Source of the DNA: an uncultured Gammaproteobacteria bacterium
Lineage (GTDB): Bacteria; Pseudomonadota; Gammaproteobacteria; Pseudomonadales; Pseudohongiellaceae
DNA: 64,000 nt
Assembly: GCA_963975155.1 (NCBI GenBank)
Contig: CAXBFG010000002.1
Span: 264,181-328,180, forward strand
Reading direction: 5' to 3'
Each line of letters opens with the position of its first letter. Within the stretch, counting starts at the first letter, position 1. Of this stretch, positions 39,259-42,314 are shown one piece after another. Position numbers and translations under genes: made by a program. The notes below the pieces were generated by a model. It saw only the letters and a program-made list of their open reading frames with translations. It searched no databases and was not told where the DNA came from.

Positions 39259-41331
39259 TTACCAGATTTTAACTCTTTCCTGTGGTGGCAGATACATCGC
39301 ATCCTCCGGCTGTATATCAAAAGCCTCATACCAGGCGTCAATGTTTCTGACGATACCATTGGTCCTGGCTTCACTATGTGAATGAGGATCTGTAGTAATG
39401 CGAACTTCCAGATTCTCATCTCGGTATAGTCTACGCCAGACTTGCGCCCAACCCATAAAGAAACGTTGATCTCCCGTATAGCCATCTATGACTGGCGCCT
39501 CTTCTCCATTGAGTGACAACTGATACGCTTTATAGGCAACTGCCAGCCCGCTCAAATCCCCGATATTTTCGCCCAGTGTAAATTCTCCATTCAGTAATTT
39601 TCCAGGTAAAACTTCAAATTGGTTATATTGCTCTACCAGAGCATTTGCCCGCTCTGAAAAAGCTGCAGCATCTGCTTCGGTCCACCAGTCCCTGAGCATA
39701 CCGCTACCATCTGATTTTCGTCCCTGATCGTCAAAGCCATGGCTGAATTCATGCCCGATAACCGCCCCAATCCCGCCATAATTTACGGCATCATCGGCTG
39801 CTACGTTGAAGAATGGAGGCTGTAAAATAGCCGCCGGAAAAACAACTTCATTCATGTTTGGATTGTAATAGGCGTTGACCGTATGGGGTGTCATAAACCA
39901 CTCCCCGCGGTTGATTGGCTGCCCCAGTTTACTGACTTCACGTTGATGTTCAATTTGCCGGGATCTCATAACGTTACCGACCAGGTCATTTTCATTAACA
40001 TCCAGACCTGAATAATCTTTCCACTCATCGGGATAGCCTATCTTGGCAGTAAAGCTGGCTAATTTGTCCTGGGCTTCAGCTTTGGTGGCATCCGTCATCC
40101 ATTCAAGCTCATCTATACCAAGACGAAATGCCGTACGCAGATTTTCAATCAATTCATCCATACGTTGTTTGGCTGCATCCTGGAAATAACGTTCGACATA
40201 CAGTTTGCCAACCATTTCACCCAGGGCGCCATCTACTGCATCAACACCTCGTTTCCAGCGTGGACGGTTTGCTTCCAGTCCACTAAGTACACCGCCTTCA
40301 AACTCAAACTCAGCATCAACAAAGTCCTGACTAAGAAAAGATGCATAGGCATTCAGCAGTTTAAAACTGGTGTAATTTTTCCATTGTTCCAGGCCAACTT
40401 CCGACCATATTGTACTGAGCTCTTCAAAGAAGCTGGGCTGACTGATGACAAATTCATTGGTAAACATCCCAAGTCCCTGCATTGCTGCTGCCCAGTCAAT
40501 AGCCGGTGACAGGATTTGCAGCTCGTCAAGACTGAGTTTGTTATAGGTAAGCTCACGCTGACGGTTTTGAACCCGATCCCAATGCGCCTGCGCGAGTCGG
40601 TTTTCAATCTGCAAAACTGAATCTGCAATATCCGCACCATTTGAAAAACCTGCCAGCGACATCAGGGTGTTAATGTAGCCAGAGTATGCCTGCCTCGCTG
40701 TCTGATATGTGTCGTTGTCACTTTGCAGATACCAGTCTCGATCAGGTAAACCCAGGCCAGACTGAAATACATTCGGAACATATTGGTCAGTCTGTCTTTC
40801 ATCGACATCGATATAAAAACTGAAAGGCATCTGCACCCCGATATAATTCAGTGCCGTCATCACCTGGATCATTGTGGCTTTATCTTCCACGGCAACAATT
40901 TCTGCCAGCCTGTCAGCGAGAGGATTACTGCCCAGGTTTTCAATCAAATTTTCGTTCATAAAGCTTTGGTAAAAGTCGCCAACTTTCTGACTATCTGAAC
41001 CTATAGCGGCATCAGCAGCTGCAGCTTCTTCAATAATGGTGAGTAAATTTTCTTCAGCCACATCGGCCAGGACAGTAAAGGCGCCATAATTGGATTTATC
41101 TGCTGGAATCTGCGTATTGCTCAGCCAGGCACCGTTTACATAATGATAAAAATTATCACCGGGAGTTATCGAGTTATTCATATTCTCAAGATCAAGCCCC
41201 GAACCGAGACGCAACTCAGGCGGGCTTTCCGACTCGGCATTTTCATTCACATCAGGAGCAACGGTTCCCTGCGGGGAACAAGCAAGCAGGGCCAGGGCAG
41301 TTAGCAGAATAACCGAATAAATTTTAAGCAT
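39259..41331 (-). CDS. M13 family (PepO/neprilysin-like) zinc metallopeptidase, lipoprotein
   Basis: Zn motif VIGHEFSHGFD and GENIGDLSG. It ends ...PPQERVKIW. The start at 41331 gives MLKIYSVILLTALALLACS (lipobox) with a GGAGA SD. Confidence 0.9.
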   Translation of the reverse strand: MLKIYSVILLTALALLACSPQGTVAPDVNENAESESPPELRLGSGLDLENMNNSITPGDNFYHYVNGAWLSNTQIPADKSNYGAFTVLADVAEENLLTIIEEAAAADAAIGSDSQKVGDFYQSFMNENLIENLGSNPLADRLAEIVAVEDKATMIQVMTALNYIGVQMPFSFYIDVDERQTDQYVPNVFQSGLGLPDRDWYLQSDNDTYQTARQAYSGYINTLMSLAGFSNGADIADSVLQIENRLAQAHWDRVQNRQRELTYNKLSLDELQILSPAIDWAAAMQGLGMFTNEFVISQPSFFEELSTIWSEVGLEQWKNYTSFKLLNAYASFLSQDFVDAEFEFEGGVLSGLEANRPRWKRGVDAVDGALGEMVGKLYVERYFQDAAKQRMDELIENLRTAFRLGIDELEWMTDATKAEAQDKLASFTAKIGYPDEWKDYSGLDVNENDLVGNVMRSRQIEHQREVSKLGQPINRGEWFMTPHTVNAYYNPNMNEVVFPAAILQPPFFNVAADDAVNYGGIGAVIGHEFSHGFDDQGRKSDGSGMLRDWWTEADAAAFSERANALVEQYNQFEVLPGKLLNGEFTLGENIGDLSGLAVAYKAYQLSLNGEEAPVIDGYTGDQRFFMGWAQVWRRLYRDENLEVRITTDPHSHSEARTNGIVRNIDAWYEAFDIQPEDAMYLPPQERVKIW

Positions 41332-41539
41332 TTCTGTTCTCCATGGATTTTGCATGCCGCAGTATAGAACGCTTGTTCCGAAGACATCAATGTATGCACT
41401 GATATTGGGCAAGTCTGACTGTGAAGAGTATATTTTGTGCAGTTTATGTTTTCTTCAAAGTGCTTTGATGCCATGTCATTAATTTAATATTTCTAACAAA
41501 TACAACAAGTTAAATCTTTATTATGGTGATTCTATAAAT

Positions 41540-41555
41540 TGGCACCGGACTTGCA
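41540..41555 (+). promoter_or_regulatory. Sigma-54 (RpoN) -24/-12 promoter
   Basis: TGGCAC-CGGAC-TTGCA is an exact match to the TGGCAC-N5-TTGCW consensus. It lies in an intergenic region with no downstream + strand ORF. Confidence 0.5.
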
Positions 41556-41565
41556 ATGATCAACA

Positions 41566-41656
41566 TAGCAAATTCAGTATTCCCCGTATTGAATTCAGCT
41601 CCTGAAAGAAATTTCAGAAATTTTTTAAGCCCTGTCCCACACAGGGCTTTTTTTTT
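41566..41656 (+). ncRNA. Candidate ~90-nt sigma-54-dependent small RNA
   Basis: Predicted start ~12 nt after the -12 GC. Hairpin 1 is 41571-41595. Hairpin 2 is 41602-41617 with a GAAA tetraloop. The terminator is 41628-41648 followed by a 9-T run. The flanking genes are both on the - strand. Confidence 0.4.
41628..41656 (+). terminator. Rho-independent terminator (+ strand)
   Basis: AGCCCTGT-CCCAC-ACAGGGCT followed by T-rich TTTTTTTT. On the opposite strand the hairpin is followed by TTAAAAAA, so it is strand-specific for +. Confidence 0.8.
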
Positions 41657-41697
41657 GCCTGTAATGTAGCTTTTGTACCTGCTTTTTTTCAGCCTGC

Positions 41698-42249
41698 TCA
41701 GGGTTTTGCTGTTTTAATGAAATGTTCGCGGTAATAACGTAATTCATCGATAGAATCACGTATATCTTCCAGGGCAAGATGGGCACTTTGTTTTTTCAAA
41801 CCATCCACTAAATCCGGACGCCAGCGTTTTACCAGTTCCTTGATAGAACTGACATCCAGGTTGCGATAATGAAAGAAGCTTTCCAATGCCGGCATATAGC
41901 GCGCCAGAAAACGCCTGTCCTGACAGATACTATTGCCACACATCGGCGAATAACCTTTGTCACAATACTGGGATAGAAACTGCAGGGTGAGATGCTCAGC
42001 ATCACTTTCGCTGGTCGGGCTGACCTTGACGCGCTTAACCAGACCCGAAGCATTATGATGTCTCTGATTCCAGTCGTCCATACCTGCCAGGGTAGACTCA
42101 GACTGGTAGATTGCCAGTACCGGACCTTCCGCAACAACCTGCAAATCGGTGTTGGTAACAATAGTGGCAATTTCAATGATGCGGTCTGATTCCGGAATCA
42201 GGCCAGTCATTTCCAAGTCAATCCATATCAAATGCTGTTTTTTATCCAT
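41698..42249 (-). CDS. orn: Oligoribonuclease
   Basis: [11 protein letters not shown] (DEDD exo I), ...[11 protein letters not shown]..., and ...[17 protein letters not shown]. Start chosen at MDKKQH (42249). Confidence 0.95.
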
Positions 42250-42314
42250 GCCGCATTGTAGCAAAGGCTTTACTTACTTAGTATGCTGATGACAAAACAC
42301 CTTCTCGGGTAGGC

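Follow-up and report, generated by a model that had tools for sequence, protein, structure and literature searches.

A predicted sigma-54-dependent small RNA gene beside orn in Pseudohongiellaceae, a candidate for control by NtrC

Pseudohongiellaceae are common, almost entirely uncultured marine heterotrophs, and a literature search found no paper on regulatory RNAs of this family. In the genome of one member, an orphan sigma-54 promoter on the plus strand lies between a gene for an M13/PepO-like peptidase (pepO) and the oligoribonuclease gene orn, which raises the question of what this promoter serves. An earlier interpretation made from the letters alone (here, the sequence-only reading) had proposed a small RNA (sRNA) gene between two minus-strand neighbours. 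The orientation of both neighbours is borne out in the window, that is, in the whole 64-kb stretch of DNA that was analysed. The reading favoured here, which as a whole is fairly probable, is that the spacer holds a stand-alone gene for an RNA of ~91 nt. This RNA would be induced by NtrC and sigma-54 and would act in trans as an Hfq-type anti-Shine–Dalgarno (anti-SD) regulator. The features of the locus are as follows.

39259-41331, minus strand: gene for the M13/PepO-like lipoprotein peptidase (pepO)
41361-41390, minus strand: putative sigma-70 promoter of pepO, TTGATG-18-TATACT, from a consensus scan; context, outside the RNA gene
41395-41411, no strand assigned: NtrC-type 17-bp dyad TGCACTGATATTGGGCA, centred at about -162 from the predicted start
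41500-41512, plus strand: IHF-like site ATACAACAAGTTA with the core CAA-N4-TTA (41503-41512), at about -59
41540-41555, plus strand: sigma-54 promoter TGGCAC-CGGAC-TTGCA (TGGCACCGGACTTGCA), with the -24 GG at 41541-41542 and the -12 GC at 41552-41553
41566-41656, plus strand: predicted sRNA of ~91 nt, with its start placed at 41565-41567
41567-41600, plus strand: hairpin 1, with the loop UCCCC at 41581-41585 as the proposed seed, from fold and conservation
41602-41617, plus strand: hairpin 2, CUGAAA-GAAA-UUUCAG, with a 6-bp stem and a GAAA loop, from fold and conservation
41618-41656, plus strand: A/U-rich linker, terminator hairpin (41627-41649) and U-tail, together a predicted Hfq-type 3' module
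41698-42264, minus strand: orn, followed by rsgA and psd

The sequence-only reading had assigned the full -24/-12 consensus to the promoter, and the match indeed extends over 16 of 16 positions. It is the sole perfect occurrence of TGGCAC-N5-TTGCW across the window, although its significance at that level is weak, with at least one match in 17 of 100 shuffles. In the 2.75-Mb genome, perfect matches outside long open reading frames (ORFs) number four, the sRNA promoter included. Two of the other three are located upstream of the type IV pilin gene pilA and of a nitrogen-regulated Gcw_chp porin gene, and the remaining intergenic match is found 347 nt 5' of the gene for a 468-aa signal-peptide protein. 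Because of this genome-wide company, namely pilA and the porin gene, a perfect intergenic match predicts a real promoter well in this organism. Moreover, TGGCA-N6-TTGC is unchanged in all eight aligned relatives and is found in all 10 copies known from the genus. The genome also encodes rpoN (DNA-binding domain, 239 bits) and five Sigma54_activat proteins.

Downstream of the promoter, conservation in the eight-genome alignment resumes at an invariant TAGC (41566-41569), 12-13 nt past the -12 GC. This onset falls where a sigma-54 transcript should begin, and the start is for this reason predicted at about 41566. The RNA from 41566 to 41657 folds into three hairpins at -28.3 kcal/mol (z = -6.2), an energy equalled by none of 200 shuffles. 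The fold reproduces the two hairpins described in the sequence-only reading, one carrying the UCCCC loop and the other a 6-bp stem at 41602-41617 with a GAAA loop. That reading had also placed a plus-strand terminator at 41628-41656, and the terminator scan agrees, calling the plus strand only. Its stem is formed by 41627-41635 and 41641-41649, and the T-run extends to 41656.

In hairpin 1, opening of the UCCCC loop costs ~0 kcal/mol. Three of its four Cs (41582-41584) are invariant in the eight aligned copies, each of which retains a loop run of at least four Cs. The sequence of hairpin 2 is almost invariant across the genus (CTGRAAGAAATTTCAG), with 100% of cells paired. Such conservation of sequence beyond the needs of pairing hints at a function outside the anti-SD model. 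The 3' part has the features of Hfq-type sRNAs, that is, an A/U-rich stretch followed by an intrinsic terminator with its U-tail, in a genome that encodes hfq. The product of this gene is 85% identical to the N-terminal domain of E. coli Hfq.

Could the transcript encode a small protein? The sequence-only reading had stated that no plus-strand ORF lies between promoter and terminator. Taken literally, this is incorrect, as a plus-strand ORF of 37 aa at 41556-41669 is present in the ORF list. What stands is that this ORF is not a gene: it begins upstream of the predicted transcription start, it is not conserved, and relatives lack start codons. Comparison of the relatives' copies revealed no conserved ORF within the RNA. 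A small-protein reading was likewise rejected, as the RNAs of relatives contain no ATG, GTG or TTG.

The element is single-copy in its own genome. In other genomes, it was sought by BLAST and with R1, a covariance model built from the promoter and the RNA. Ten of 13 congeneric genomes yield an R1 match, with scores of 56-135 bits. Nine of these carriers keep the gene order pepO / RNA / orn / rsgA, pepO being absent from the remaining one, and orn adjoins the RNA in all 10. A sequence-pattern search of public contigs located the element on six MAG contigs. The labels of the carriers include Pseudohongiellaceae bacterium, uncultured Pseudomonadales, 'SAR86' and Gammaproteobacteria MAGs, with contigs from TARA and other aquatic metagenomes.

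The stems of the RNA change in a coordinated manner among these copies. Covariation was assessed in a 12-sequence alignment fitted to the model, a procedure that favours structure, and 93.9% of its cells are paired, with changes on both sides at seven pairs. Four of these are in the terminator and three in the stem of hairpin 1, where 95% of cells are paired. The pairing and covariation values were unmatched in 500 shuffles, and sliding the partners by 1-3 columns left 19-50% paired. Compensatory variants of the terminator can also be recognised by eye (CTGT/ACAG versus CTAC/GTAG versus CCGC/GCGG), and near-identical metagenome strains differ there as well (CTAC/GTAG versus CTAA/TTAG). Stem covariation, a strand-specific terminator and conservation from the predicted +1 are RNA-level constraints. 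The earlier proposal of an sRNA gene is supported by these compensatory changes and by the presence of promoter, hairpins and terminator at the same locus in most of the genus.

The sequence-only reading had made conservation in relatives the test of its proposal, including relatives that keep the spacer between pepO and orn. Three of the 13 genomes lack the RNA and retain pepO adjoining orn. In two of them (G007 and G012), the spacer measures ~120 bp, and the RNA gene and the upstream dyad are cleanly absent. The third (G003, L050:2064-2285) has a 220-bp spacer holding a decayed copy, in which the promoter has changed to TTGAGCTTCATTTTTG, hairpin 1 has been deleted and the terminator lacks a T-run. 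To judge from its sequence, this remnant is a small-RNA pseudogene. Since the spacers of the non-carriers are deletions or a decayed copy, and not diverged intact spacers, they are in keeping with gene loss and not with absent constraint. In other words, the element appears to behave as a discrete, losable and dispensable gene, unlike a merely drifting spacer.

Outside the genus, weak full-length matches to R1 (33-46 bits) come from 12 genomes belonging to a sister genus and from one genome of a third genus. The sister-genus RNA is ~120 nt long (L032:1501-1648, L033-L042) and is divergent from purL, adjoining a gene for a LysR regulator and not orn. It has a promoter of the sigma-54 type, TTGGCACGCTAACTGCAT, and mostly tandem NtrC sites, several of them near-perfect, such as TGCACCAACCGGGTGCA and CGCACCAGCATGGTGCA. 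The RNA contains three or four C-rich motifs, among its parts being the hairpin AUCAU-UUCCCCCCUUUR-AUGAU, a single-stranded UUAUUUCCCUU, the hairpin GAGAC-CCCCCUAA-GUCUC and a C-rich terminator loop. The orn-side and purL-side RNAs have in common the promoter type, the NtrC sites and a UUUCCCC(CC)UUU loop. This suggests that they may form a single family or, failing that, share a design, and their homology appears likely.

An order-wide search with R1 over 300 genomes gave no credible match outside the family. Two matches in another family (L088 and L089) were judged unrelated, as they have no sigma-54 promoter and represent the 3' region belonging to a 27-aa ORF. In both, the ORF encodes a hydrophobic peptide (MISSAVLAIMVPVTLGLLAMIAYDECH); C-rich stretches and a strong terminator come after it, and the R1 match to this 3' region is judged a chance resemblance.

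The constant position beside orn invites another explanation, namely that the element acts in cis on this convergent gene. It could do so as an antisense RNA, by transcription interference or by lending its terminator hairpin to the 3' end of orn. The distances would allow this, with the terminator hairpin 49 nt and the end of the T-run 41 nt from the orn stop codon; no separate minus-strand terminator is called in between, and the adjacency is fixed in 10 of 10 carriers. Nevertheless, a cis role is quite unlikely. Read on the minus strand, the hairpin runs into UUAAAAAA, which makes it a poor terminator in that direction, and three species keep orn and pepO without the element. The sister-genus RNAs lie beside purL and not orn, and an antisense role leaves the invariant loop and hairpin 2 unexplained.

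With regard to orn itself, no terminator belonging to this gene can be recognised in 41657-41697, the interval between its stop codon and the sRNA terminator. As judged from this interval, read-through from the convergent orn into the sRNA gene is possible.

If a trans-acting sRNA gene is accepted, the next issue is its control. The sequence-only reading had pointed to the upstream DNA as the place to look for an enhancer-binding-protein site, and the search found both the IHF-like site at about -59 and the NtrC-type dyad at about -162. The IHF consensus is WATCAANNNNTTR, with CAA-N4-TTA as its core. In the corresponding A/T-rich tract, C41503, A41504, T41510, T41511 and A41512 are invariant in eight aligned members of the genus. 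For NtrC, the E. coli consensus is TGCACCA-N3-TGGTGCA. The dyad at 41395-41411 has three mismatches to TGCACC-N5-GGTGCA. A dyad with at most three mismatches is present in 20 of the 22 upstream regions compared, which are orthologous or related, and its spacing is conserved; of shuffled 400-nt controls, ~10% contain one. Its distance from TGGCA is -131 to -145 in the genus and about -113 and -100 in the sister genus, where the sites are mostly tandem. Enhancer-type dyad, IHF-like site and promoter, as predicted here, make the upstream region a textbook sigma-54 enhancer layout.

The dyad also abuts the -35 element of the putative sigma-70 promoter of pepO (window 41361-41411), and predicted binding of NtrC there might affect the divergent peptidase gene as well. 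The promoter motif of pepO, CAGTATAAAACGC, is kept in members of the genus, RNA-less ones included. Because the species with clean deletions lose the dyad yet keep this motif, the dyad belongs to the RNA gene. The same observation, together with the RNA-level constraints of stem covariation, strand-specific terminator and conservation from the predicted +1, argues against a further explanation, in which no stable RNA is made at all. There, NtrC, IHF and sigma-54 would form a DNA-level block, as a roadblock or an architectural element, that controls the divergent pepO promoter. The abutting dyad would suit such a role, and sigma-54 holoenzyme can occupy promoters without firing, but we regard this explanation as very improbable.

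The activator of the sRNA gene is most likely NtrC, the nitrogen-starvation regulator, as suggested by the dyad and its distribution. The genome contains a clear NtrC equivalog, which scores 708 bits versus a cut-off of 559 and has ntrB in front of it. Dyads of the NtrC type also precede other sigma-54 promoters of this genome, namely those of glnK (P-II), a glutamine synthetase, ntrB and the Gcw_chp porin gene. The remaining activators are PspF and three proteins of the response-regulator type for which no known equivalog could be assigned. One of these four could serve a real sigma-54 sRNA in place of NtrC, and the signal would then be something other than nitrogen status. It fits this possibility that three of the five encoded activators have no known equivalog and that the dyads of the genus are single and imperfect, with 2-4 mismatches to the NtrC consensus. 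A different enhancer-binding protein is nonetheless rather unlikely, given that the dyad fits the NtrC consensus and resembles the glnK, glutamine synthetase and ntrB sites. Moreover, the sister genus has near-perfect tandem NtrC sites, and no NtrC-type dyad is found at the sigma-54 promoter of pilA.

With NtrC as the preferred activator, the following course of events is proposed. As a closed complex, sigma-54 RNA polymerase would wait at the promoter at 41540-41555. Once nitrogen becomes limiting, NtrC in its phosphorylated form would occupy the dyad at 41395-41411, and a bend introduced by IHF at about 41500-41512 would carry it to the promoter, with transcription starting near 41566. Synthesis would end at the intrinsic terminator, whose last position is 41656. 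The unpaired UCCCC loop of hairpin 1 would then pair with G-rich Shine–Dalgarno (SD) sequences (GGGG or GGGGA), thereby lowering the translation of targets. Anti-SD repression is proposed because, apart from the C-run of hairpin 1, the RNA has no single-stranded motif that is both conserved and fully accessible. We infer transcription, activation by NtrC, use of IHF, binding of Hfq, anti-SD action and targets from the features described above.

Potential targets were sought in the own genome among ~2400 crude gene starts. A first scan by plain duplex folding gave meaningless long duplexes and was replaced by a score combining duplex and accessibility. The top candidate encodes a TAT-signal protein of 209 aa and is complementary to hairpin 1 at 17 of 18 nt. 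It was rejected as a target, as its orthologues in six sRNA-carrying genomes show no complementarity (-9 to -12 kcal/mol), and the match may be due to chance or represent a species-specific target. The leader of this gene (C1:26068-26267) carries three TAATAC repeats beside the 18-nt stretch with its 17 complementary positions.

Another candidate is a 342-aa secreted family without a Pfam match, whose G-rich sites have the form AAGGGGGAUUC-AUG. Its three close copies in the own genome rank 2, 52 and 62 of ~2400 genes. Cognate RNA/site pairs surpass non-cognate ones by a small margin only (-17.1 versus -15.8 kcal/mol; permutation p = 0.045, from species that are related to one another). G-rich SDs are found in all members of the family, including those from species without the RNA. 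The evidence for this family as an sRNA target is suggestive, making it a lead and not a finding. A conserved seed of 5 nt is too short for defining targets.

The genomic distribution of this ~342-aa family may be described separately. The own-genome copies are at C11:66289-67317 (minus strand), C8:61502-62530 (plus strand) and C4:258935-259969 (plus strand). Each related genome has several matches, mostly 7-9, of which about three are close copies with 73-87% identity. The copy on C4 lies just downstream of a gene for a 456-aa membrane protein that has a sigma-54-like promoter with two mismatches to the consensus, and an NtrC-like dyad is located 58 bp upstream of that promoter.

Two other modes of action were considered and rejected. 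The neighbouring pepO has the SD GGAGA, and its complementarity to the loop, as assessed by eye, comprises at most 5 nt and is not conserved. Sequestration of a CsrA-type protein was discarded as well, the GGA of hairpin 2 being missing in the window's copy.

Overall, the locus represents a well-delimited candidate riboregulator that lends itself to testing, and nitrogen limitation is probably the state that it reports. The RNA could be searched for in metatranscriptomes as a marker of nitrogen stress in a clade of Pseudohongiellaceae. A broader proposal is that the orn-side and purL-side RNAs form one NtrC/sigma-54 anti-SD family that performs translational triage in marine oligotrophs during nitrogen starvation; this is a speculative idea with a low probability. 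If it were true, the C-rich loops would act on mRNAs whose ribosome-binding sites are unusually rich in G, titrating or blocking them, and this subset would include the 342-aa secreted family with its AAGGGGGA sites. As one copy of this family would belong to an NtrC-controlled operon, a feed-forward loop would result.

Comparison with known RNAs was carried out through Rfam, at the gathering threshold and at E up to 10 for the window and E up to 1 for relatives, and no family reached its threshold. The sub-threshold matches in the window are anti-hemB (26.9 versus 49.5), ncS54 (19.7 versus 43) and the Betaproteobacteria toxic sRNA (19.0 versus 50), while Yfr10 (40.7 versus 43) appears in one sister-genus copy only. 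In these alignments, it is the terminator and a generic hairpin that account for the score. The absence of a Qrr match agrees with the remark in the sequence-only reading that the RNA does not resemble Qrr.

In its general architecture, the locus belongs with several well-known sigma-54-dependent sRNAs. Qrr (activated by LuxO), CrcZ/CrcY (CbrB) and GlmY (GlrR) share the layout of enhancer site, IHF and sigma-54 promoter followed by a short, terminator-bounded RNA. Their activators, sites, sequences and modes of action differ from those described or proposed here, and the window has no covariance-model match to any of them even at E = 10.

In its proposed mode of action, the RNA is closer to another group of regulators. 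RsaE/RoxS of Firmicutes present C-rich motifs in unpaired loops, for which G-rich ribosome-binding sites are the proposed partners, and NfeR1 is a C-rich anti-SD sRNA with the alpha-r14 motif CCUCCUCCC. Both alpha-r14/NfeR1 and RsaE/RoxS resemble the RNA described here in their C-rich loops, whereas they come from other phyla or classes, differ in motifs and promoters and have no homology to it that Rfam supports. NfeR1 of Sinorhizobium is connected with NtrBC as well, reportedly through a double-negative loop (PMC10746234), in contrast to the activation by NtrC proposed for the RNA studied here.

The closest functional analogue is NrsZ of Pseudomonas, which is induced by NtrB/C and RpoN under nitrogen limitation from a stand-alone gene (PMC4253122). 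The two RNAs have in common a promoter of the TGGCAC-N5-TTGCW type and a functional or proposed motif in a hairpin loop, and NrsZ was likewise found from an orphan intergenic RpoN promoter. NrsZ is at least 226 nt long, consists of repeated modules, undergoes processing, carries the loop motif ACAGGCAG, lies beside ntrC and activates rhlA (PMC4253122). The RNA described here, on the other hand, is ~91 nt long, has a UCCCC loop and adjoins orn. It shows no similarity to NrsZ in sequence or by covariance model, with no match up to E = 10, and ACAGGCAG is absent from it.

A different route to nitrogen control is used by GlnZ of enterobacteria. As described in PMC9731577, GlnZ depends on NtrC through the glnA promoter, is cut from the glnA 3' UTR and adjusts metabolism by base pairing under nitrogen limitation. 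By that description, GlnZ has no promoter of its own, whereas the RNA beside orn comes with a promoter and a terminator of its own. Hfq-type sRNAs driven by orphan sigma-54 promoters are well known; what is new here is the family and a clear regulatory hypothesis, and not the principle. Besides NrsZ and GlnZ, the RNA would represent a third, unrelated solution to the problem of placing an sRNA under the control of NtrC.
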